DNA of 64,000 nucleotides, from the NCBI GenBank assembly GCA_020054235.1, contig JAGVLQ010000018.1, positions 22,421-86,420 on the forward strand, given 5' to 3'. The notes below the pieces were generated by a model, which saw only the letters and a program-made list of their open reading frames with translations, was not told the origin of the DNA and did no database searches. The position numbers and the translations under genes are program-made. The DNA is from Candidatus Babeliales bacterium (GTDB lineage Bacteria > Babelota > Babeliae > Babelales > JACPOV01). This document shows, one piece after another, positions 9,601 to 52,096 of this stretch (position 1 is the first letter of the stretch; every line of letters starts with the position of its first letter).

Positions 9601-10300
9601 AATTCTTACTAAAGATTATCGAAGTGTTCTTTTTAATGCCGCACAGAGCATTGCTAACCGCATTATTGAATCAGAAACCAAATTTGAATCAATAGAATAT
9701 ACCTATAAAACACTTGAAGACACTATTCAACAAGCAATGAATGCGAGCGATAAAAAAGTTTTTCTAAAACAAGATTTTAGTAAGTATTTACCGAACATCT
9801 CTAAATTAAGTTTTCAACTAATGCCAGAAATCTTAAATACAGAATTGCAAAAAAAATATCCAAACAAAACCGAAGATCTTGATGGTGATGAAATTAAACA
9901 TTTGCTCGATCTAACTCCAAACTCAGAACAGCTAAAGCAAAACTTCACCATCATTGATGACATTGAGGTAGCAAAACTTCAAGAAAATTTTGATAGCGCA
10001 GCAGAAAAATGGCACAATCATGATAACAGTATGCATATTTTCTTACTTGGAACCATGAGTCAAAATTATAGCACTGCAAGTGGCCACTGGTATATGGTTG
10101 CTACTCAAAAAATAAATGGTCAAAAAACAATTTTTACGGCCGATTCTTTAAATATTGATCGTACAAAGGATCCAAGGGTTCAAAAACTTATTGAAAAACT
10201 CAATGAAGAAGATAAAAACGATAAAAGAGAAATCAATAAAAAAGAGAAAAAAAGTGATGAAAAAGACAATGATTGGTGGAGAATTTTTTTAGGACTTTAA
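6680..10300 (+). CDS. secreted MutS-core/ABC-type ATPase fused to a C-terminal papain-fold cysteine peptidase (paralogue 2)
   Basis: Signal peptide MKKIIASLFIFYFSFATA|MDP. Walker A GSNANGKT (8654-8677) and Walker B LLINDEP. C-terminal QGLNSQCGYYSLRNGL (Cys codon 9362-9364) ... SGHWYMVA (His codon 10085-10087). The C-terminal third is about 90 percent nt-identical to paralogue 1 by eye. Confidence 0.75.
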   Translation: MKKIIASLFIFYFSFATAMDPEENFYYENFIETLDRMNNQIMGTLIKINTEIHHPYSLNDLQSMLKNAKKYKAFTEKYIKGDTVFNHLKHNDSDPKKSLYMKQKIKTLDETLLRLEICQKNLIEEQDHYDKGFLQSLLEAESNAQETLKKLDTAKNPYTLKDLLLILKQTQECIEFTTTYLKGESEFHSGKNPILTNPVKLTMKEKLPLLKNHYNTLLIKTESLNLETVKEFMKKALPDDLPRCQPEGFKELPYSAQFEWYVDGQLNLTNQDKRRLNRIFSLMAKVNIIPPFIDPLDDIIDPISLDELDIFASSGQDKKHSIMNNVDYTKLHIGRAVLGRHFLQIKKPENVQRLQKELVLLKKNAPQQSKPLYKLIRDELEQIKPLEDNFLSFYEEGYRFLGNFIERKEFKKFNFYNILNLNKKANNSPITVQIGQLWDFATPIMMLPISIGVTAASALSPTTSWMGLLGGSAFTYNSASGLPVVWSDLRLQVKALALFQRNLIGIVKFIEKLENFHQYLEKNNILPEIRKDLLIPTDTQEMKNLVELLKKDTFQGEESFFSHWGNILAAWRKMDENKDMFLKAYYTLGIIDFLTGLNELYDSQTANNPYCFGKFDKNENISIQAKGVWSPLLKQKEKAVLNDFIFGRPDHPKTGIITGSNANGKTFFMRALAGAALMVITLGIGPAQELSIPEMLNFLTSMNIADKPQNGLSLFAAVVERMAHIINTLKNNPDKNYLLINDEPFVGSSQTISTPSAATLIACVTNMKKVLALFTTHLDVTKLEQEFPKLIGNYHLNKYKINHGVDQNSEDYYAAPLKIFADSGLPEEFIKDFNQRLEKEKTKKNEKEEKKEPAKKSEKKPYTPEPTSPQEKPENKLETSYQHIPVIHQGLNSQCGYYSLRNGLIALKYGVTNQPIDTNDERFKASGNQQILETQTWDQLFPNWQQEIIKYRKKRALAAWIQEKIKPYIAEHDPILTKDYRSVLFNAAQSIANRIIESETKFESIEYTYKTLEDTIQQAMNASDKKVFLKQDFSKYLPNISKLSFQLMPEILNTELQKKYPNKTEDLDGDEIKHLLDLTPNSEQLKQNFTIIDDIEVAKLQENFDSAAEKWHNHDNSMHIFLLGTMSQNYSTASGHWYMVATQKINGQKTIFTADSLNIDRTKDPRVQKLIEKLNEEDKNDKREINKKEKKSDEKDNDWWRIFLGL

Positions 10301-10832: not shown

Positions 10833-11588
10833 ATGCATTATTTTTCACTCAATAAAAACGTATATGCAACGCAGTATGAAGATGCAATCATCATCTTAGA
10901 CGTTGAACGCGATAATTATTTAAGCCTTATTGATGATGCTGCAAAATATTTTAACCTCATTCTTTCAATTCCTTTTGAAAAAAGTAATGAAACTTATATT
11001 CCTGCCATCAAAGAAACACCGCAAAACGCTGAATCTTATAATACCTGGATTGCAGAATTTCTAGAGCAAGGGCTCATTATACCAACTAAAACAGCTTCAC
11101 AAAAAATTGTTAATCCAGCTGCGCAGGTTTCGGGCGGCTTGCGTGAATATAAATGGGATACCAAAAAAAATTGGAACCCAGAAAAAAATGCATCTTACGT
11201 TGCTATAGCAAAAGCTTGGTTTACCTTAATGAAAGTAAATAGAGCAATAAAAAAAGGTGGCATGAAAAAGCTTTTTACTTTAGTTGCACAAACAAAAAAC
11301 ATAAAGAAGGCTATTAAACCTTCGCAACAAGATCTTGAAAATATTAGTGCTGCAGTCGATGCTGCTACCAAACTTTCTTTCCAGAAGACCTATTGCCTTG
11401 GCTGGGCAACTGCCTTTGTAATAGAAGCACGCAAACGCGGTATTGATTGCAACCTAAAAATTGGCATTCAAACAAACCCATTTTATGCGCATGCCTGGGC
11501 AGAATTTGAAAATAAAGTGATTCACGATGATCAACAAGTAGCACAAGTACTAGCAACGATCGCAACACTTCCGAAAGAATGCTCATGA
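10833..11588 (+). CDS. lasso-peptide leader peptidase B (N-terminal PqqD-like RRE fused to a transglutaminase-like Cys protease)
   Basis: GGAGG RBS. The N-terminus AIIILDVERDNYLSLIDDAAKYF is PqqD/RRE-like. The C-terminus is YCLGWATAF...FYAHAWAEFENKVIHDD. Cys188 (11394-11396), His220 (11490-11492) and Asp232 are spaced 32 and 12 residues apart, as I recall for McjB. Confidence 0.8.
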   Translation: MHYFSLNKNVYATQYEDAIIILDVERDNYLSLIDDAAKYFNLILSIPFEKSNETYIPAIKETPQNAESYNTWIAEFLEQGLIIPTKTASQKIVNPAAQVSGGLREYKWDTKKNWNPEKNASYVAIAKAWFTLMKVNRAIKKGGMKKLFTLVAQTKNIKKAIKPSQQDLENISAAVDAATKLSFQKTYCLGWATAFVIEARKRGIDCNLKIGIQTNPFYAHAWAEFENKVIHDDQQVAQVLATIATLPKECS

Positions 11589-13318
11589 CTTTTTTTGTTG
11601 GTGGTTTTGGCAAAAAAGCAAACCAACTCATCAAAGATTTTTTTGATAAAAATGAGAACTTAAACAATGATACCATCACGGTTACGAGTAACGATAGTCT
11701 TTTTACTGCCAGAGCGCAGCATGATAACCAACGCGATGCTATTAAAGTTGGCGATGAAGGTTTATTGCGAGGAAAGTTATTTACTAAAGAAACCTACGCT
11801 CCAATACATACCTTTGAAAAAACAATAGAACCAACTATTCTTATGAATAACTATTGGGGTAGATATTCTGGTGCATTGTATAACGCAAAAACAAAAACCG
11901 TTTCATTGGTGCGTGATCCCCTAGGCCTTGAAACACTTTTCTATATGCCTTTTGAAGGCAACATGCTTTTTAGTACAAAATTATCATTATTAATTGATAT
12001 TCTTAAAACTAAACCCTCAATTGATTGGGATTACTTTGCTGAATATCTTTTAGAAAAAAATTATTTAATTCCTCAAACGCCTTTCAAAGGTGTTTCTGAA
12101 CTCTTACCCGGCATGCATTTGACCTATAATGCTGAAGGCAAACTTGACCAAACGTTTGAATGGCAGATTCCAACTGAAACAATAACTGATGAAAAAGCTA
12201 TTGAGGATTTAGTTTTTACTACGTTCAAAAAAAGTACTGAAGCTTGGCTTGGTAATAATAAAAAAATTACGTTACAACTTTCAGGTGGCGTTGATTCATC
12301 GTCTATTCTGTGCATGCTAAAACATATTAATCCTGAACTTTCTATACAAGCACTCCATTATAATGATAGTAAAAATGTTGCATCGCAAGAAATTGCTTAT
12401 GCACAAAAAATTGCTGATGAATGCCAAGTGTCTCTTACGCAAATGGACTTACAAGAAAGAAAACTCTTTGAGCCAGCACCCGCTGATTGGCGCCCAGATA
12501 AACCACATACTGGCATGACCGGCTCTCAATCAACGAAAAAAATAAAAGATTTTGCGCAGAATACCATGTTATTTTCTGGTCAGGGAGGTGACCATGTGTT
12601 TTTAGCACCACCACCACAAGAAAGTATCGCCGACTACTGGTTAGACAAAGGCTTATGGGGTATTTCTGGTATTATCAATGAATTGTGCAGTTTATTTCGC
12701 ACTTCATGGTTAGCTCTTGTAAAAACAAATGTAATAGCACTCAAAAATTATTATTTAGGGCAAGCAAAAAACAAGCATGATTATATTGAAGATCATCAAG
12801 GCATGCTATCACCAGCAATCTTAGAAAGAGTGGAGCAAAAACCATTTTACTTAGACTCTTATTTAAAAAATTTTTCACCCGGTAAAGCGCAACACATTAA
12901 AATGCTCTATCATGCTATTGCCTATGCAGATAAATTAGATGAAACGATGGTAACCTATCCATTATTGTCATTACCGGTGGTTGAGGCTGGATTAAAGATA
13001 CCTACCTACAAATCAATAAAGGACGGCTTTAATCGCTACTATTTGCGAAAAGCAGTCAGTAGAATAACCCCGACTCAAGTAATTTGGCGCCGTAATAAGG
13101 GTGAAGTTTCTGCTTCAATTTTACAAACAATGCGCAAAGAATTTACGCCACTTGTTGATCTTATTATGCAAGGATTACTGGTCAAAAATGGCATTGTCGA
13201 AAAAAAATGGATTGAAGACAGGCTCAATCAGGTACGCCATGGCAATCCACGAAATTTAATTGTTCTCTTCCGCATTATTGGCGCTGAGTTGTGGTTACAA
13301 CAATGGGGTATAAAATAA
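11579..13318 (+). CDS. lasso-peptide cyclase C (asparagine-synthetase-like lactam synthetase)
   Basis: 579 aa, overlapping B by 10 nt. PP-loop motif LQLSGGVDSSSIL (SGGVDSS = 12281-12301). The N-terminal part resembles an amidotransferase domain but lacks an N-terminal catalytic Cys. Confidence 0.8.
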   Translation: MLMTFFVGGFGKKANQLIKDFFDKNENLNNDTITVTSNDSLFTARAQHDNQRDAIKVGDEGLLRGKLFTKETYAPIHTFEKTIEPTILMNNYWGRYSGALYNAKTKTVSLVRDPLGLETLFYMPFEGNMLFSTKLSLLIDILKTKPSIDWDYFAEYLLEKNYLIPQTPFKGVSELLPGMHLTYNAEGKLDQTFEWQIPTETITDEKAIEDLVFTTFKKSTEAWLGNNKKITLQLSGGVDSSSILCMLKHINPELSIQALHYNDSKNVASQEIAYAQKIADECQVSLTQMDLQERKLFEPAPADWRPDKPHTGMTGSQSTKKIKDFAQNTMLFSGQGGDHVFLAPPPQESIADYWLDKGLWGISGIINELCSLFRTSWLALVKTNVIALKNYYLGQAKNKHDYIEDHQGMLSPAILERVEQKPFYLDSYLKNFSPGKAQHIKMLYHAIAYADKLDETMVTYPLLSLPVVEAGLKIPTYKSIKDGFNRYYLRKAVSRITPTQVIWRRNKGEVSASILQTMRKEFTPLVDLIMQGLLVKNGIVEKKWIEDRLNQVRHGNPRNLIVLFRIIGAELWLQQWGIK

Positions 13319-13379: not shown

Positions 13380-14663
13380 ATGAATATTCTTTATATGGCA
13401 ATTTTCATTTTTTTTACAAATATTACTCAAGCTATGGAGATAGAAAAAATAGAACGAAAAGGAATTAATCCTCCGTCTCTAAAATTTTTAGCTGCAGTAA
13501 AAGTACCTAATAATGCTAATAAAAAAAAGTTACCACAAGAACTTATTGAATATCATAAAACTATTGAAAATATAATAAAAAATCCTACAAAAGCTCTATG
13601 TAAAACATTCAAAGAAAAAAAATATGATATAAGTGCATATTTAATAACTCATGGCGCTGATATTAATGAAAAAGAATCAGGAGAGATTATAATTAAGAGT
13701 ACTACAATTGATTTAGCTGCAATGCATGGAAATAGTGCCCTAGTAAAGCTATTACAAAATAATGGTGCCAAAATCTATAGAGAAGGTCATAGGAAAACGA
13801 GTGGTTTTTTTTCGATGTGGGAGCCTGCTACTTTGGTGCCACTAGATTATGCTATCTTTAATAGAAATAAGGAGACGGCTTATTATTTAATCCAAGAATT
13901 AACAAAAATTGAAAAACAAGAAGTACTTACAAATCGTTCATTTCGAGCTAATAGAGACTTTTCTAGTCTTGATTTAGCATCAACTTTAGAAGAAAAAGAT
14001 ATTGAAAAAGCAATTTGTGAAGTTACAGGTTTTTTACAACCAAAATTAATTCCATTAAATGAGGTACTTTATTATGGAATAGCTATTGGTGCAGTTAATT
14101 GTGTTAAAGAGTTAATTGAAAAACATCAAATAGATATCTCTACATTTAAAGTTAAAGCCTGGCCTCATAATCCATTAAGTCTTTCAGCTAGATATAATCA
14201 AATTGAAATGATGAATTTCTTAAAAGAAAATGGTACCGATATAAATGAATTAGAAATTTCAGGTGACTCTGCTTTACATTTTGCAGCATTAGAGGGAAAT
14301 AGTGATGCTACAAAGTGGTTGCTTGAAAATGGTGCAAATGTTGATCGTCATGATCAACATAAAGTTACACCTTTACTTGAAGCAGCCAATTATGGCAATA
14401 ATGATATTATTGAAATATTACTTCAACATGGTGCATCCATAGAATTTCAAGATCCTCAAGGATGTAGACCTTTACATCGTGCTGCTCAACGTGGAAATAC
14501 CGAATCAATTAAAATTTTATTGAAACATGGTGCTCAAATAAATCCTTGGGATAATTCTTACCTTACTCCTTTGTGGTATGCAGAAAATAATAGACACCCA
14601 GAAACTGCTGATTTTTTACGTAATTATAACAGCTCGTGGACTTCTTATTGCCAAATTGTATAG
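13380..14663 (+). CDS. ankyrin-repeat protein with signal peptide
   Basis: N-terminus MNILYMAIFIFFTNITQA|ME. The C-terminal half holds consecutive ankyrin repeats (GDSALHFAALEGNSDATKWLLENGANVD, KVTPLLEAANYGNNDIIEILLQHGASIE, GCRPLHRAAQRGNTESIKILLKHGAQIN). Confidence 0.8.
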   Translation: MNILYMAIFIFFTNITQAMEIEKIERKGINPPSLKFLAAVKVPNNANKKKLPQELIEYHKTIENIIKNPTKALCKTFKEKKYDISAYLITHGADINEKESGEIIIKSTTIDLAAMHGNSALVKLLQNNGAKIYREGHRKTSGFFSMWEPATLVPLDYAIFNRNKETAYYLIQELTKIEKQEVLTNRSFRANRDFSSLDLASTLEEKDIEKAICEVTGFLQPKLIPLNEVLYYGIAIGAVNCVKELIEKHQIDISTFKVKAWPHNPLSLSARYNQIEMMNFLKENGTDINELEISGDSALHFAALEGNSDATKWLLENGANVDRHDQHKVTPLLEAANYGNNDIIEILLQHGASIEFQDPQGCRPLHRAAQRGNTESIKILLKHGAQINPWDNSYLTPLWYAENNRHPETADFLRNYNSSWTSYCQIV

Positions 14664-14865: not shown

Positions 14866-16362
14866 TTATGCCGCCATTGCTTTGCCAGCATTAACAAAAC
14901 GTAGCACAAATTCATGCAACTCCTTTTTGTCCATAGCCTGGGTATAACGACCGACCACTTGGCCTTTGTTAAAGACGAGCAATGCCGGAATAGATTTTAC
15001 ATTATATTTTTCAGCAATTTCCTTAGTAGACGGTACATCCATATCAACCTTGTAAAAGTTTACCTGCTTATCTAATTGATACGCTACTGATTCAACAACC
15101 GGCAACATGCGCATACAGCTCGGGCAATATTCTGCATAAAAATCAAGAATCACGGGCCCTTCTGCTTTATTCAAAATTTCATCGAGTTCTTGCTTTGAAT
15201 TAATCATGGTAATCGGTTTTGTCTGTTCATCGGGAACGACAAAAAAATTCTTTGCCAGTCTTTGTGCCATTTTAGGTGAATAACCAAGATCTTGTAATGC
15301 TGCTAACGCATCGAGTGCAGCTTTGATTCCATCACCGGCTGCAACACCCGCTTGTTTGTAATGATCATCCGCAACATCTCCGGCTGCATAAATAAATGGC
15401 ATAGATGTTTGTTGGGAACGACCATCCAGAAGGATATAGCCATTATCATCAATATTAACAAAATCTTGTACTAATTTGGTATTCGGATTATGCCCAATTG
15501 CCAAAAACACTCCTTGCACAGGCATTTTTGATGTTTCATGCGTTTGACTATTTTCAAGAATTACCTGCGTTACGTGGTCACCATCGCCCTGGATTTCTTT
15601 GACTATTTTATTGTATTCAATAGAAATGTTTGGATAATCTTTGAGGCGATCTTTCATAGAAGCGCTTGCACGCATTATGCCAGAACGTACTAAAATCGTA
15701 ATATTTTTTGCATAGGAAGCTAACTGCATTGCTTCTTCAGCTGCGGTGTCACCTCCACCAACAACAACGACATCAAAACCTTTTACAAACGGCGCATCAC
15801 ACACAGCGCACGTTGTCACCCCTTTGCCCCAGTATTCACGCTCACCAGGAACCCCAAGGGTACGTGGTGTTGAACCGGTTGCTACAATTATGGCCATGGC
15901 ACGAATCTTTTTGCCAGCATCAGTAATAATGGTATACGGCCATTTTGAGGTGTCTATTTTGGAAACGGTATCATTTAAAAATTCGGTACCAAACTGCTTA
16001 ACTTGTTCATGAAGCTCTTCCATTAATGTGGTCCCTAAAACTTTCATACGTCCCGGCCAATTTTCAATATAGCTGGTTTCTGTCAATGCTCCGCCTGGCT
16101 TATTGCCACGGATAACCAAGGTATTAACACCCCCGCGCGAAGCATAAAGCCCGGCACTTAATGCTGCAGGACCAGAGCCAATAATAACGACCGGCTTCAC
16201 ATCTTTTGCCTCAAAGGCATCTTCTATGTTTATTGAACACGTTCCGTGATCGCAACGCTCAGCATAGACCTTGGTAAAGCCTGCATATTTCAGGGTAAGC
16301 GCAGTGGTAATCAGAATGGAAGCCAGAAGGCTGGCACTAATAATTCTTTTTGTAATGTTCAT
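14866..16362 (-). CDS. trxB: thioredoxin reductase fused to a C-terminal thioredoxin domain, with N-terminal signal/anchor
   Basis: VVIIGSGPAALSAGLYA (FAD site), redox CAVC (15799-15810), VVVVGGGDTAAEEA (NADPH site), GDVAD. The C-terminal about 110 aa is thioredoxin fold with CPSC (15115-15126). The N-terminus is MNITKRIISASLLASILITTALTL. Confidence 0.8.
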   Translation of the reverse strand: MNITKRIISASLLASILITTALTLKYAGFTKVYAERCDHGTCSINIEDAFEAKDVKPVVIIGSGPAALSAGLYASRGGVNTLVIRGNKPGGALTETSYIENWPGRMKVLGTTLMEELHEQVKQFGTEFLNDTVSKIDTSKWPYTIITDAGKKIRAMAIIVATGSTPRTLGVPGEREYWGKGVTTCAVCDAPFVKGFDVVVVGGGDTAAEEAMQLASYAKNITILVRSGIMRASASMKDRLKDYPNISIEYNKIVKEIQGDGDHVTQVILENSQTHETSKMPVQGVFLAIGHNPNTKLVQDFVNIDDNGYILLDGRSQQTSMPFIYAAGDVADDHYKQAGVAAGDGIKAALDALAALQDLGYSPKMAQRLAKNFFVVPDEQTKPITMINSKQELDEILNKAEGPVILDFYAEYCPSCMRMLPVVESVAYQLDKQVNFYKVDMDVPSTKEIAEKYNVKSIPALLVFNKGQVVGRYTQAMDKKELHEFVLRFVNAGKAMAA

Positions 16363-22729: not shown

Positions 22730-23746
22730 TCATTTATTTAAAAGAGCTAACAGATCCTTTTGTTTTACAAACATAGTGATATCGCGCTCTATAAATGGAA
22801 TTTCTGCCGTAGATCTTTTTGTAATGCTACTATTGGCATAATCAAACCACGAACGACCTTCCGGCGCACGCGGTGAACCTTTGAAATCTGGAAATCGATT
22901 CGATTTACCAAGTTTTCCTTTAAAATTCTGCCATAGCTGTTGATCTAAAAATTGAGTATGTTCATGGCATCGCCAAACAGCACCCTTACCATCAGCTGAA
23001 TCACCAAGTAAATTAACGAGCGGGACTTTTTCAGCATAACTTGCATGGCCACCTTTTGCTACAAACACCAGTGGATGCGTTCCGTTAAATACCAAATTTT
23101 TTGCATGCACATAGGTACCTTCATCTCCGTGGCGGGAAAAATACATTTGTTGAATAACAACTGTTCCTTTCTTTGTTTTTTTTAAATACACTTCTACTTC
23201 TTCAACATCACCCTCGTGCTTTGCTTTTGTCTTTTTTTCAATAAACTTTTTAGTATCGAAAACTTTATCCGGAATATTCAAAACTAGATCACCCTGCAGC
23301 AATGCTTGCTTTAAAACATACAATGCTGGTGTAATGTTATTAAAGGGATACAAAAAGAAAAATTGCAAGACAGCAGATTCAGGATCAACAACTTGATAAT
23401 TAAGATAGCATGGTACATGCACTTGGTTATGTTGAGGTTTTTGTCCTCGATATGATTGTTCTAAATTCTTGCCATCAAGCATAAGATAAAAATCAGTATC
23501 CGTATGTTTACCAAGATCTTGAACAGTAAGATTTCCTGAAGGGATAATTGCATCCGTTGAACCATCTTGATACAAACCTGAACGCTCCACAAGCCATTCC
23601 ATAGAATTTGGAAAATTCTGCTCATTTTTATCAAAAAAAAGGGTCGGTGCAAACTGTTGTACCATTTTTTCACGATTGGTAAAATCATCTTGCATGGTCG
23701 GTTGCAATAGCAAAAGCAAAAGTGCATAAAAACAAAACAATGACAT
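22730..23746 (-). CDS. secreted protein, Vps62/DUF946-like (tentative)
   Basis: Signal peptide. FAPTLFFDKNEQNFPNSMEW resembles the conserved N-terminal motif of the Vps62 family. This is a recollection-level match only. Confidence 0.35.
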   Translation of the reverse strand: MSLFCFYALLLLLLQPTMQDDFTNREKMVQQFAPTLFFDKNEQNFPNSMEWLVERSGLYQDGSTDAIIPSGNLTVQDLGKHTDTDFYLMLDGKNLEQSYRGQKPQHNQVHVPCYLNYQVVDPESAVLQFFFLYPFNNITPALYVLKQALLQGDLVLNIPDKVFDTKKFIEKKTKAKHEGDVEEVEVYLKKTKKGTVVIQQMYFSRHGDEGTYVHAKNLVFNGTHPLVFVAKGGHASYAEKVPLVNLLGDSADGKGAVWRCHEHTQFLDQQLWQNFKGKLGKSNRFPDFKGSPRAPEGRSWFDYANSSITKRSTAEIPFIERDITMFVKQKDLLALLNK

Positions 23747-35181: not shown

Positions 35182-35667
35182 ATGGAAACTAACTATACCT
35201 TGCGCGATTTTTTACCGTTAATCATAATTTTTTCAATTGTTTTTGGGCTAACTGCTGCAAGTCAATACATCCGCGGCTTTTCATGGCAAAGCACTATGGC
35301 AGATTTTATGGGATTCTTTTTTATCATCTTTGGCAGCTTTAAAATCATGAATCTTCATGGTTTTGTAAAAGCTTACAAAATGTATGATATTATTGCCCAA
35401 CGTAGCACAGCCTATACCTACGCATATCCGTTTATTGAAATTTCGCTCGGTATTGCTTATTTGGCTCGCTTGTTTCCTTTTGCAACAAACATTATTACCT
35501 TGCTTATCATGACTATAAGCAGTATTGGCGTTGCCGTAGAATTGGCACAACAAAAACAATTTACGTGCGCTTGCTTAGGAGCATTATTCAATATTCCCAT
35601 GACGTACATAACACTTGCAGAGGACTTCTTAATGGCACTAATGGCTCTCGCAAACATTTTATTTTAA
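35182..35667 (+). CDS. four-TM membrane protein, MauE/DoxX-like (tentative)
   Basis: 161 aa with four hydrophobic helices and a CACLG motif in the last helix. Confidence 0.4.
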
Positions 35668-36281
35668 TTATTTTTTAAATACTTTTTTTTGTTGTTTTGA
35701 TTATGTATTTCATCTTCATGTCGATTACGCGATGAAGAAGTTGTAAAGGCCTTAAAGCATGCTCTACAAGAATAAGGCCTTTCTCCTGTATGTACACGCA
35801 AATGCTCGGTTAGTGTTGATTTTTGCGCAAATCCTTTTTTACAGTAATTGCATACAAATGGTTTTTCACCCGTATGTATTCTAGAATGAATTACAAGATG
35901 CGCTGGGCGCTGAAATTCTTTTCCACACACATGACAGACATGATTTTTATTTTTTTTAAGAGGTTCATGCTGCGGCTTAAAGGGAACTTCAAACTTGGTA
36001 CTTTGAGGAGTTACAAAGTGCTCAATAGCTAAAGGACCATTTTTATTTGAAAATTGGTTCTTATAAGCAGCATATACCGGTAACACTCGCAACACATCAA
36101 CAGGAGACTCGCAGGTTGATTTATCATTAACAAAAAATGATATCGCCATTTTTGGACTTGTATGTGAAGTAGGCGAAACCAAAAATTTAATTGAGGTTTT
36201 ATCTAATTTTTCCATCGACCAAAGCGACACATAATTTACCGAAAACAACGCAAAAAAAACTAACATGTACTTTATTATCAT
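35664..36281 (-). CDS. signal-peptide protein with three tandem Krueppel-type C2H2 zinc fingers
   Basis: [78 protein letters not shown] (nt 35703-35942). The N-terminus is [22 protein letters not shown]. Confidence 0.8.
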
Positions 36282-36400
36282 AATATCTCTTTCCTAAAAA
36301 CAAGAATTGTTGATTTTTTTTATAAAAATAATATCGTATTAATGATACTCAATATTAAAAATAATGTCAAATATAAAATTTATAAATTAAAGTTGAGCCA

Positions 36401-37468: not shown

Positions 37469-37525
37469 AAGGCGTCTTATACAGAGTTCATAAATTAAAA
37501 CTACGGTTTTTTGAATAAAAAAAAT

Positions 37526-37604
37526 TGGTGCGCTCGACCGGAATCGAACCGGCGACCTACAGATTAGGAATCTGTCGCTCTATCCTACTGACCCTTCGAT
37601 GCGC
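37526..37604 (-). pseudogene. degenerate tRNA-Arg(CCT)-like copy
   Basis: 57 nt (37535-37591) are identical to 37646-37702 of the intact tRNA. The acceptor 3' strand is changed (CGAGCGC-A-CCA). The 5' strand GCGCATCG needs a bulged A, and the D-stem has a G:G mismatch. Confidence 0.5.
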
Positions 37605-37636
37605 TTCGCTTACTCAGGACTAAAGGCAGCACTTTT

Positions 37637-37713
37637 TGGTATGCCCGACCGGAATCGAACCGGCGACCTACAGATTAGGAATCTGTCGCTCTATCCTACT
37701 GAGCTACGGGCAT
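37637..37713 (-). tRNA. tRNA-Arg (anticodon CCT)
   Basis: Hand-folded cloverleaf: acceptor ATGCCCG/CGGGCAT, D GCTC/GAGC, anticodon stem ACAGA/TCTGT with loop TTCCTAA, T-loop TTCGATT, encoded CCA. Confidence 0.8.
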
Positions 37714-37807: not shown

Positions 37808-37884
37808 TGGTGCGCCCGATAGGAGTCGAACCTATAACCTACGGATTCGAAGTCCGTCGCTCTATCCGATTGAGCTACGGGCGC
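37808..37884 (-). tRNA. tRNA-Arg (anticodon TCG)
   Basis: Acceptor GCGCCCG/CGGGCGC, D GCTC/GAGC, anticodon stem ACGGA/TCCGT with loop CTTCGAA, T-arm ATAGG-TTCGACT-CCTAT, encoded CCA. Confidence 0.85.
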
Positions 37885-50590: not shown

Positions 50591-52096
50591 ATGAATTTGA
50601 AATTTAACATTTTTTTATTCTTTTTTCTTTTTGCTAGCAAAGGAAATCTCATAGGCATTGAGCTCAATAATAAACTTGAACCACAGATTTCCCTGTGCAA
50701 AAAAACTATAGAAATCCTGCAAAAAAATATTATTGAAGTTATGGATAATCTCTATCAAAATCGAAATTATTGGCAAGAAGCTCAATATCGTCCATTTGGC
50801 TATTTTGTAGAGAAAGGCCCACTAAAATGGTTTTCCGGCAACAATCAATGGCGAGAAATTGAAGAAAATCTTGAAATTATCAATTCAGCACTTCTCTATC
50901 AGGCTTCATTTCTTGGTTATTTATATGAAACTCAAGATGAACTTTCGAAAGAAAATTTAGAAGTAAACAAAGAAAAAATTGAGCAAATTACCAAAAAAAT
51001 TCAACACTTCTTGCTAAATGGCAATCAGAATTTCGAGTACTCTCTGGAAGATCTTTTAAAAAAATCACAAAAATATAAAAATAATATATTGGCGAATCTT
51101 TCTGCCATTCAAAACCCAAGTCATTTCCAACGATATTGGCATTATTATAGCATTGCTGCACTCTGCACTCTAGGAGGTTATAATTATTGGGGAAAAAACA
51201 AAAAACAAATTGTAGAGTTTTGTGATGAAACTATTAAGACAGGCAACCATTTCTTCAATCATTATATTAAAGGTCCCATAAAAAATTCAATTGATATCAT
51301 TTACGGGAAAAACAAAAATGGAAATGATAAAATTGTCCCTGAAAATCCCGATGAAATCACTGATGAGTCCGAAAATTCAGAAAAAATCGTTGACGAAATT
51401 ATTACTGAAAGAATCGAACCTCTTTCTGCAGAATATATAAATTTTTATAAGAACAATTCAATGTTGAGTGAAGAGGAAATAACCAGCAAAATAAAAAAAG
51501 TTATAGCGAATCGAAAGTTCCCACCTGATTTGCAAAAAAGAGCTGATGAAGAATCAAGAAATTTAACCTATAATATTTTATGGTATAAAGGAAAAATTCT
51601 CAACCTTCTTTATTTAAAAATTGGCCTATTAGAGCTCATGATGTATGATCGCATCAAAAGAACCGATCGCCTCGTCAAAAGAACTGATCAAATCATGGAA
51701 GCTCATAAATTAAACTTTGAATTATTGGTTGCCCTACCAGCCACAGCAATCATTGGCATTTTAGGCTATCTTTCTTACAAAATTGGTAATAAGCTGTACC
51801 ATTCATTTTTTTCAAAACCCGAACTTTACTTCCAGCCACTGAAAGAGGCACTCGTTAAACTTGAAACTATTCTTAATGCTCACCAAAACATTCAATCGAT
51901 AGATTATGCCGTACAAGGACAAATTTTTTATTGGACCCAAAAACTTTATAATTCACGTACTACTATTCCATTGGTCGATCGCAACAGCTTTGAACTGGAT
52001 CTCCAGGAATTAACCTGTTTTGATTTCACACCTTCTCAAAAATTGAGTACGATACACCGCATGTTTAGGGCTTACCCCTTTTTACAACCAATTTAA
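50591..52096 (+). CDS. hypothetical membrane-associated protein
   Basis: 501-aa ORF with a signal peptide and internal TM segments (YSIAALCTLGGY, LVALPATAIIGILGYLSY). Confidence 0.5.
   Translation: MNLKFNIFLFFFLFASKGNLIGIELNNKLEPQISLCKKTIEILQKNIIEVMDNLYQNRNYWQEAQYRPFGYFVEKGPLKWFSGNNQWREIEENLEIINSALLYQASFLGYLYETQDELSKENLEVNKEKIEQITKKIQHFLLNGNQNFEYSLEDLLKKSQKYKNNILANLSAIQNPSHFQRYWHYYSIAALCTLGGYNYWGKNKKQIVEFCDETIKTGNHFFNHYIKGPIKNSIDIIYGKNKNGNDKIVPENPDEITDESENSEKIVDEIITERIEPLSAEYINFYKNNSMLSEEEITSKIKKVIANRKFPPDLQKRADEESRNLTYNILWYKGKILNLLYLKIGLLELMMYDRIKRTDRLVKRTDQIMEAHKLNFELLVALPATAIIGILGYLSYKIGNKLYHSFFSKPELYFQPLKEALVKLETILNAHQNIQSIDYAVQGQIFYWTQKLYNSRTTIPLVDRNSFELDLQELTCFDFTPSQKLSTIHRMFRAYPFLQPI

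Follow-up and report, generated by a model that had tools for sequence, protein, structure and literature searches.

A 64-kb stretch of a contig from a Candidatus Babeliales bacterium (GenBank assembly GCA_020054235.1, contig JAGVLQ010000018.1, positions 22,421 to 86,420; hereafter the window) carries, at 35664-36281 on the minus strand, an open reading frame (ORF) of 205 codons that ends in three Cys2His2 (C2H2) zinc fingers and, if translated from its first ATG, begins with a hydrophobic leader. A preliminary description, made from the letters of the window, had placed the ORF at these positions, with no strand given, and proposed that it encodes a horizontally acquired effector that could bind host DNA. 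The finger module belongs to the classical C2H2 family, both in sequence and in predicted fold, and the gene is native to the bacterial chromosome. On balance we consider it probable that the product is a eukaryote-derived, basic three-finger protein of 21 kDa, domesticated by the Babeliales bacterium, which would be exported through the Sec pathway and the type II secretion system (T2SS) and would bind host DNA. The parts of the gene and its expression signals, all on the minus strand, are as follows (aa, amino acids; NLS, nuclear localization signal).

36342..36370, minus: sigma-70-like promoter TTGACA-17 nt-TATCAT, 11/12 matches, ~60 nt upstream of ATG 36281
36287..36295, minus: Shine-Dalgarno-like AGGAAAGAG, upstream of the first ATG (M1)
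35664..36281, minus: coding sequence, 205 aa, stop codon included
36216..36281, minus: hydrophobic leader, aa 1-22, signal-peptide- or anchor-like, possible cleavage LWS/ME
35946..36215, minus: aa 23-112, without detectable relatives or confident predicted fold
35946..35957, minus: KKNK basic cluster, aa 109-112, directly before finger 1, fits K-[KR]-x-[KR]
35874..35936, minus: C2H2 finger 1, aa 116-136, recognition helix RPAHLVI
35859..35873, minus: linker TGEKP (context H-TGEKP-F)
35790..35852, minus: C2H2 finger 2, aa 144-164, recognition helix QKSTLTE
35775..35789, minus: linker TGERP (context H-TGERP-Y)
35703..35768, minus: C2H2 finger 3, aa 172-193, H-x4-H, recognition helix TSSSRNR, Arg at helix +4
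35667..35702, minus: C-terminal tail, basic, not a consensus NLS

The three-finger module and its class

Three consecutive fingers follow C-x2-C-x12-H-x3/4-H; none of the 12 zinc ligands is missing, and the two linkers and every core Phe are preserved. In a six-frame pattern search of the window, the C2H2 pattern occurred only at these three adjacent sites, in one frame. Pfam matched zf-H2C2_2 (E 2.6e-16, 59.4 bits, cut-off 40) and zf-C2H2 (E 1.2e-13, 51.1 bits, cut-off 25.2), and a PDB sequence search returned ZNF568 (5e-77), the consensus finger 1MEY (7e-20) and Zif268 (2e-19), as well as PRDM9 and CTCF. AlphaFold, run with a small alignment, predicts three beta-beta-alpha units for residues 111-197 (predicted local distance difference test, pLDDT, 94.5), and Foldseek placed this model on DNA-bound 1MEY and Zif268 with a TM score of 0.83-0.88 and a root-mean-square deviation of ~1.1-1.4 Å, the window fingers being 41-49% identical to DNA-bound classical C2H2 structures. 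The C2H2 match is no chance pattern. Pattern, Pfam, PDB search and the AlphaFold and Foldseek comparison together bear out the three fingers that the preliminary description had claimed; both linkers that it had named are present (HTGEKPF and HTGERPY), and the finger span that it had given, 35703-35942, is exact.

Core Phe occurs in 3/3 fingers and core Leu (helix +4) in fingers 1 and 2, with Arg in its place in finger 3. The R-N-R-H ending of finger 3 also closes the terminal fingers of two Endozoicomonadaceae arrays (L001 and L005). Zif268/EGR1, 1MEY and ZNF568 are like the window protein in spacing, ligands, core Phe/Leu, TGEKP/TGERP linkers and the three-unit DNA-wrapping arrangement; unlike them, the window protein is bacterial, has an export-type leader, no KRAB, SCAN, BTB or other partner domain, only three fingers, and the Arg at +4 of finger 3. 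Pfam gave no match to KRAB, SCAN or BTB in the protein, so it is not a factor of those kinds. No ROS_MUCR profile match appeared among the Pfam results up to E = 1, and because several linked fingers are present as well, the protein is not a member of the Ros/MucR family. That family shares with it Cys2His2 zinc coordination in a bacterial DNA-binding protein, but its members are cytoplasmic, have a single finger with different spacing in a larger globular fold, and lack TGEKP linkers.

TGEKP-type linkers and a Zif268-like three-finger geometry are hallmarks of DNA-binding arrays. The canonical recognition code, applied to RPAHLVI, QKSTLTE and TSSSRNR, would presumably give roughly 5'-GNT CTA NGG-3', a low-confidence guess. 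Both canonical linkers and the predicted geometry speak against an exported protein without sequence-specific DNA binding, whose ligand would be host RNA, a protein or something else, or which would act in the host cytoplasm or vacuole; so does the related Babelota family described below, which varies mainly at base-contact positions. We regard such a protein as unlikely, even though finger 3 is atypical, no strong NLS is present and classical fingers can bind RNA (PMC5100589).

Start codon, leader and central segment

The hydrophobic N-terminus exists only with a translation start at ATG 36281 (M1). In this long form, the leader precedes MEKLDK and consists of the n-region MIIK, with one Lys, and a hydrophobic core of 11-12 residues (Kyte-Doolittle 2.36). 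The possible cleavage site LWS/ME would put a small residue at -1, and AlphaFold, run on the whole protein as a single sequence, draws a helix at residues 2-24. Many window genes have AGGA or GGAG 5-10 nt ahead of their ATG; AGGAAAGAG stands ahead of M1, and nothing comparable was found before M23. TTGACA-17-TATCAT is the only promoter-like site in the intergenic region upstream of M1 and lies on the correct strand. These Shine-Dalgarno and promoter matches favour the long start, and with it the N-terminal signal peptide or anchor that had been proposed. Cleaved signal and uncleaved anchor are not distinguishable by the hydropathy criterion used.

A start at M23 would yield a different protein, a cytoplasmic regulator that is not exported and that acts on bacterial DNA through its acquired fingers, as a transcription factor or nucleoid protein. 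In the database the gene is called as this 183-aa form, Met stands directly after the leader in several window ORFs, which makes dual starts conceivable, and work cited in PMC12491435 shows single-finger Ros/MucR proteins as a bacterial use of C2H2 on own DNA. Still, M1 and not M23 has the Shine-Dalgarno sequence, plus the 11/12 promoter, and the 22 in-frame codons upstream of M23 spell a typical n-region and hydrophobic core. Analogous bacterial arrays, moreover, carry leaders and KKRKR-type motifs that would be useless inside a bacterium. We therefore treat the regulator as a serious competitor that is nonetheless unlikely to be right.

Between leader and fingers lies an orphan segment. No relatives of aa 23-112 were found among the 120 best protein matches or in JGI metagenome contigs, and against 1.84 billion representative proteins the segment gave, besides itself, only a weak repeated match to P0241, a 1,546-aa Ig-like-repeat protein. 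This match (aa 35-70, E 4.5e-6 over 7 stretches) was set aside as probably due to chance and boosted by repeats. For residues 18-111, the single-sequence AlphaFold model gave no useful information, and no fold is predicted for the segment. Of the whole protein, only KKNK (aa 109-112) fits the minimal core of a monopartite NLS, K-[KR]-x-[KR]. The C-terminal KKKYLK, previously called NLS-like, is indeed basic but does not fit this consensus, which leaves that part of the claim weak. The remainder of the earlier interpretation is well supported as a hypothesis. Without the leader, the mature protein has a computed mass of ~21 kDa and a pI of 9.6.

Genomic context and origin of the fingers

The window has a GC content of 30-40% and densely packed bacterial genes, among them those for DnaA, an AmiC-type N-acetylmuramoyl-alanine amidase, TlyA, an HtrA/DegP protease, dimeric GlyRS, TrkH/TrkA, MutS and UvrA, together with three tRNA genes. 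Proteins from metagenome bins match the window's GlyRS at 80-85% identity (80% for Candidatus Babeliales MAG proteins); the bins that bear a name are Candidatus Babeliales bacterium and Candidatus Dependentiae bacterium. GlyRS thereby places the window in Babeliales, an order of Candidatus Babelota (also Dependentiae or TM6). The zinc-finger gene is convergent with a MauE-like gene that ends at 35667, so that the two stop codons overlap, and divergent from an FAD-oxidoreductase-like gene whose start lies 120 nt upstream. Its GC content (0.34 vs 0.363+-0.027 in window ORFs of >=150 aa), its third-position GC content (0.262 vs 0.280+-0.044) and its synonymous-codon score (0.143 vs 0.163+-0.035, rank 15th of 44 window ORFs) are those of its neighbours. 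The comparison of codon usage that the preliminary description had called for thus finds the gene matching the other 43 window ORFs, and the acquisition would be old and fully ameliorated, or the donor equally AT-rich.

Because composition and codon usage match and bacterial genes overlap and adjoin the gene, it is not a product of eukaryotic contamination or of a chimeric assembly, the objection that the preliminary description had itself anticipated. The sole support for that objection is that the best sequence matches are eukaryotic. Bacterial genes closely flank the ORF on both sides, on one contig, and its stop overlaps the MauE-like stop, its composition and codon usage are indistinguishable from those of its neighbours, and it has bacterial expression signals and no introns. 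We rejected contamination on composition and context and, as far as sequence can show, give it next to no credence.

To the right of the zinc-finger gene, the order tRNA-Arg(TCG)-TlyA-HtrA-GlyRS-VTT-TrkH-TrkA-ABC...MutS is common to the window (37808 to ~57500) and to its relatives L029 and L031. The order shared with L029 stops just left of tRNA-Arg(TCG), where the window has an extra tRNA-Arg(CCT) and a partial copy of it.

37808-37884, minus: tRNA-Arg(TCG)
37637-37713, minus: tRNA-Arg(CCT)
37525-37591, minus: copy of the 3' 67 nt of tRNA-Arg(CCT), 96% identical (Rfam: partial tRNA)

The copy corresponds to 37636-37702 and lies 111 nt downstream of this source; it may be a scar of integration or rearrangement. 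Since the shared gene order ends at the tRNA-Arg cluster, the zinc-finger gene lies in a variable flank. A search for an orthologue by gene order found other genes left of tRNA-Arg(TCG) in L029, whereas the contigs of L031 and L056 end there (relatives with 80-85% identical GlyRS).

Being a singleton without orthologues that sits in a variable flank, beside tRNA genes and the remnant of one, the gene might be a functionless relic of an old transfer that is still open by chance. However, no zinc ligand (12/12 present), linker or core Phe has been lost, promoter and Shine-Dalgarno signals are present, and the codon usage is host-like in a reduced, gene-dense genome. We judge a relic very unlikely.

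High-scoring matches other than the protein itself cover the finger region only, at ~45-59% identity, and belong to eukaryotic poly-zinc-finger proteins (insects, crustaceans, fish, amphibians and mammals) or to unnamed metagenome proteins. The best identities are ~55-59% (arthropod, fish and metagenome proteins), with 57% to an Endozoicomonadaceae array; similarity is at the level of the consensus, so no donor can be named. Two metagenome matches, P0009 and P0117, come from gene-sparse contigs with no bacterial neighbours, and the P0009 contig carries a reverse transcriptase and so looks eukaryotic. The preliminary description had allowed that the best homologues might all be bacterial with non-canonical linkers; they are instead eukaryotic poly-zinc-finger proteins with canonical ones.

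Zinc-finger arrays in other bacteria and a possible role in the host

We scanned one genome per species from 185,579 bacterial and archaeal species, using [RK][IVG]HTGEKPF-type patterns and a four-sequence alignment as query, and confirmed at least 28 loci with such arrays, nearly all from host-associated lineages. Canonical linker arrays are thus rare in bacteria, as had been claimed. These lineages are Endozoicomonadaceae (among them Kistimonas, Sansalvadorimonas and Candidatus Endonucleobacter, a parasite living in mussel nuclei), Xenorhabdus mauleonii and a Candidatus Babelota metagenome-assembled genome (MAG), together with single contigs binned as Bacteroidota and Campylobacterota. Protein searches added two further named bacterial proteins, from Thalassotalea sp. 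G20_0 and Salinisphaera sp. G21_0. Zinc-finger enrichment in Kistimonas has been noted (PMC12491435), and our literature search turned up no paper that connects C2H2 fingers with Dependentiae, Endonucleobacter or bacterial nucleomodulins. TGEKP-linked C2H2 arrays were also seen in 21 IMG/VR contigs (L032-L052; identity up to 52%), giant-virus bins and contigs of 150-320 kb included, and are thus in circulation among viruses of shared protist hosts as well.

Several of the bacterial arrays follow a leader. In Babelota (L002), MNKVWMFGLLFISIGQLNG precedes METG, followed by DKKRKR and five fingers; in the Bacteroidota bin (L003), MLKKYLYYTPFLLLLTSSLYA leads into Lys-rich stretches and five fingers; in the Campylobacterota bin (L024), MKKLLFFITIISLAQPLA is followed by KKPKRKKRR and five fingers; and in Sansalvadorimonas (L018), MAFRLNFIITSLCIVIGLPTSA is followed by five fingers. 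L002 adjoins genes for FtsH, ribosomal protein S20, PBP2 and XerC/D on a 521-kb contig, and the neighbours of L003 and L024 are compact and prokaryote-like. An Endozoicomonadaceae MAG, CBDDPF01, has arrays of another architecture, unlike the Dependentiae type: its proteins (L001, L005, L007, L010 and L013) start directly with 3-5 fingers (MPEYxCKIC... or MGEHTCHFC...) and have a conserved Thr-rich C-terminal extension and no leader.

The Candidatus Babelota MAG (GCA_965658655.1) holds a tandem family. Five paralogues open contig 2 (L055, 157-3897) and, with L002 at 5731-6438, bring the family to at least six genes. All six begin with the common leader MNKVWMLGLLFISIGQLNG and continue through an acidic linker to a basic cluster that directly precedes the fingers, 4-7 in each, the cluster being DKKRKR in 5/6 paralogues and DKKHER in the sixth (L055, 970-1680); the KKRKR motif has no obvious use inside a bacterium. 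Over the 31 fingers of the six paralogues, zinc ligands and core Phe are invariant and core Leu is kept in 29/31 (0.41 bits), and entropy peaks at helix +6 (3.02 bits), +3 (2.73) and -1 (2.50). Helix positions -1, +3 and +6 hold the canonical base-contacting residues of Zif268-type fingers. Variation at these positions is the pattern that would be expected of a family diversifying its DNA-sequence specificity, and suggests an evolving recognition repertoire. The window protein is like this family in belonging to the same phylum and in having a leader that ends before Met-Glu/Asp, an unstructured linker and a C-terminal C2H2 array with TGEKP-type linkers behind a basic cluster. It differs in its non-homologous leader and linker, in fingers that are ~49% identical, in being a singleton and not one of six tandem copies, and in having no clear KKRKR.

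We raise as a possibility, rather than as an expectation, that proteins with a leader, a basic cluster and a C2H2 array form a class of effectors that has been assembled independently and repeatedly in host-associated bacteria such as Dependentiae and certain Bacteroidota, Campylobacterota and Endozoicomonadaceae. These effectors would leave the cell through Sec and the T2SS, bind host DNA sequence-specifically and diversify at base-contact residues like the KRAB zinc-finger proteins of animals, and the window protein would be a three-finger singleton member of the class. Since Met-Glu follows the leader here and in several other window ORFs, the leader may be a later addition, placed 5' of a start codon that was already there. 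If real, such a class would be a zinc-finger counterpart of the TAL effectors.

The design has precedents within the phylum. In Chromulinavorax destructans a signal peptide is predicted in 44% of coding sequences and in 78% of 98 ankyrin-repeat proteins, and Sec is the proposed effector export route (PMC6561590); in Babela, signal peptides occur in 79/126 ankyrin proteins (PMC4378268). The TM6 core gene set includes type II secretion components, two gspD copies among them (PMC4776705). Putative Dependentiae effectors have been described as proteins in which a leader precedes a eukaryote-type domain (PMC6561590, PMC4378268), and the members in culture are obligate parasites that live inside amoebae and flagellates (PMC6561590, PMC4378268, PMC4776705). 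With a hydrophobic leader and a eukaryote-type domain in a Dependentiae genome, the zinc-finger gene fits this design of putative effectors.

For the exported host-DNA-binding protein that we favour, the following route can be drawn. The leader would direct the protein through Sec into the periplasm, and the T2SS or outer-membrane vesicles would release the mature form. From the host cytosol it could reach the nucleus by diffusion, given its small size, perhaps helped by the KKNK cluster or the fingers. There, the three fingers would read a site of ~9-10 bp, and host transcription might be altered by occupancy of that site or through the unique 90-residue N-terminal region.

Several points weigh against this proposal. 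In the database (P0001, 183 aa) the gene is called from M23 and without the leader, and the leader itself was judged by hydropathy and by eye, with a criterion that also catches membrane proteins. Finger 3 has Arg for the core Leu and is of low confidence in the single-sequence AlphaFold model. A motif check found no strong NLS in the protein, KKNK being a minimal core only. Protein searches and JGI contigs yielded no orthologue of the gene by which conservation or selection could be gauged. The tandem Babelota family is a different gene family, non-orthologous to the window gene, and so bears on the class and not directly on the window protein. A Sec/T2SS substrate of Dependentiae would, in addition, have to cross a host vacuole membrane.

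The closest functional analogues are MoHTR1 and MoHTR2 of Magnaporthe oryzae, small host-nuclear effectors with a signal peptide and a C2H2 finger (PMC12488382). Unlike the window protein, MoHTR2 comes from a eukaryote and has a single finger domain in 110 aa, and the likeness implies no homology outside the finger motif.

Bacterial nucleomodulins include TAL effectors (Xanthomonas), AnkA (Anaplasma), NUE (Chlamydia), RomA (Legionella) and LntA (Listeria). By analogy, the window protein may share their logic, in which a bacterial protein goes to the host nucleus and acts on chromatin or DNA. Known bacterial nucleomodulins bind DNA or chromatin with other modules, however, and travel mostly by type III or type IV secretion and not by a Sec leader, and to our knowledge none of these five uses classical C2H2 arrays. 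Kistimonas, Endonucleobacter and Sansalvadorimonas are, like the source of the window, host-associated and have TGEKP-linked C2H2 arrays, but these Endozoicomonadaceae belong to another phylum, and in most of their arrays the fingers begin right at the N-terminus, with no leader ahead of them and a long C-terminal extension behind.

Eukaryote-like effectors and nucleomodulins are thus known, whereas a Sec-leader-fused classical zinc-finger array in Dependentiae is undescribed in the searchable literature. Dependentiae are widespread, almost uncultured protist parasites whose effectors are known as lists of ankyrin-repeat and orphan proteins. If secreted, the window array would be the phylum's first candidate for direct, sequence-specific reading of host DNA and, to judge by the literature that can be searched, a hitherto undescribed kind of bacterial nucleomodulin. 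The specificity of zinc fingers is measurable and partly predictable, so host targets would be tractable without culturing the bacterium.

Other window ORFs have a similar build. A hydrophobic N-terminus was found in 21/44 window ORFs by the crude hydropathy criterion, which also catches membrane proteins, and four of these genes, likely further host-directed proteins, combine it with the following domains.

13380-14663: ankyrin repeats and hydrophobic leader
22730-23746: Vps62 domain and hydrophobic leader
50591-52096: NCA2 domain (mitochondrial ATP-synthase regulation) and hydrophobic leader
55770-57467: PLA2_B lysophospholipase domain and hydrophobic leader

A DNA alignment of the 5' regions of the zinc-finger and ankyrin genes, made for a common leader, showed nothing beyond AT-richness. 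In ~5/21 leader ORFs, Met, mostly followed by an acidic residue, stands directly after the leader (6680-10300, 13380-14663, 22730-23746, 35664-36281 and 55770-57467, with A/MD, A/ME, T/MQDD, S/ME and P/MRD, respectively), against a background of 1.9% Met, a post-hoc observation. Leaders added 5' of older starts, or dual starts, could account for it.

Three further observations concern other genes of the window. The overlapping ORFs 10833-11588 and 11579-13318 encode a Transglut_core3 transglutaminase-like and an asparagine-synthase-like protein, a combination typical of the lasso-peptide maturation enzymes B and C. Two large paralogous ORFs (2448-5849 and 6680-10300, ~1,100-1,200 aa) have a MutS domain V ATPase as their only recognisable part, and both contain an MKKIIASL... 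leader; if the first ORF is read in its longer form, this leader falls inside it. The ORF at 14866-16362 encodes a thioredoxin reductase-thioredoxin fusion with a hydrophobic N-terminus.

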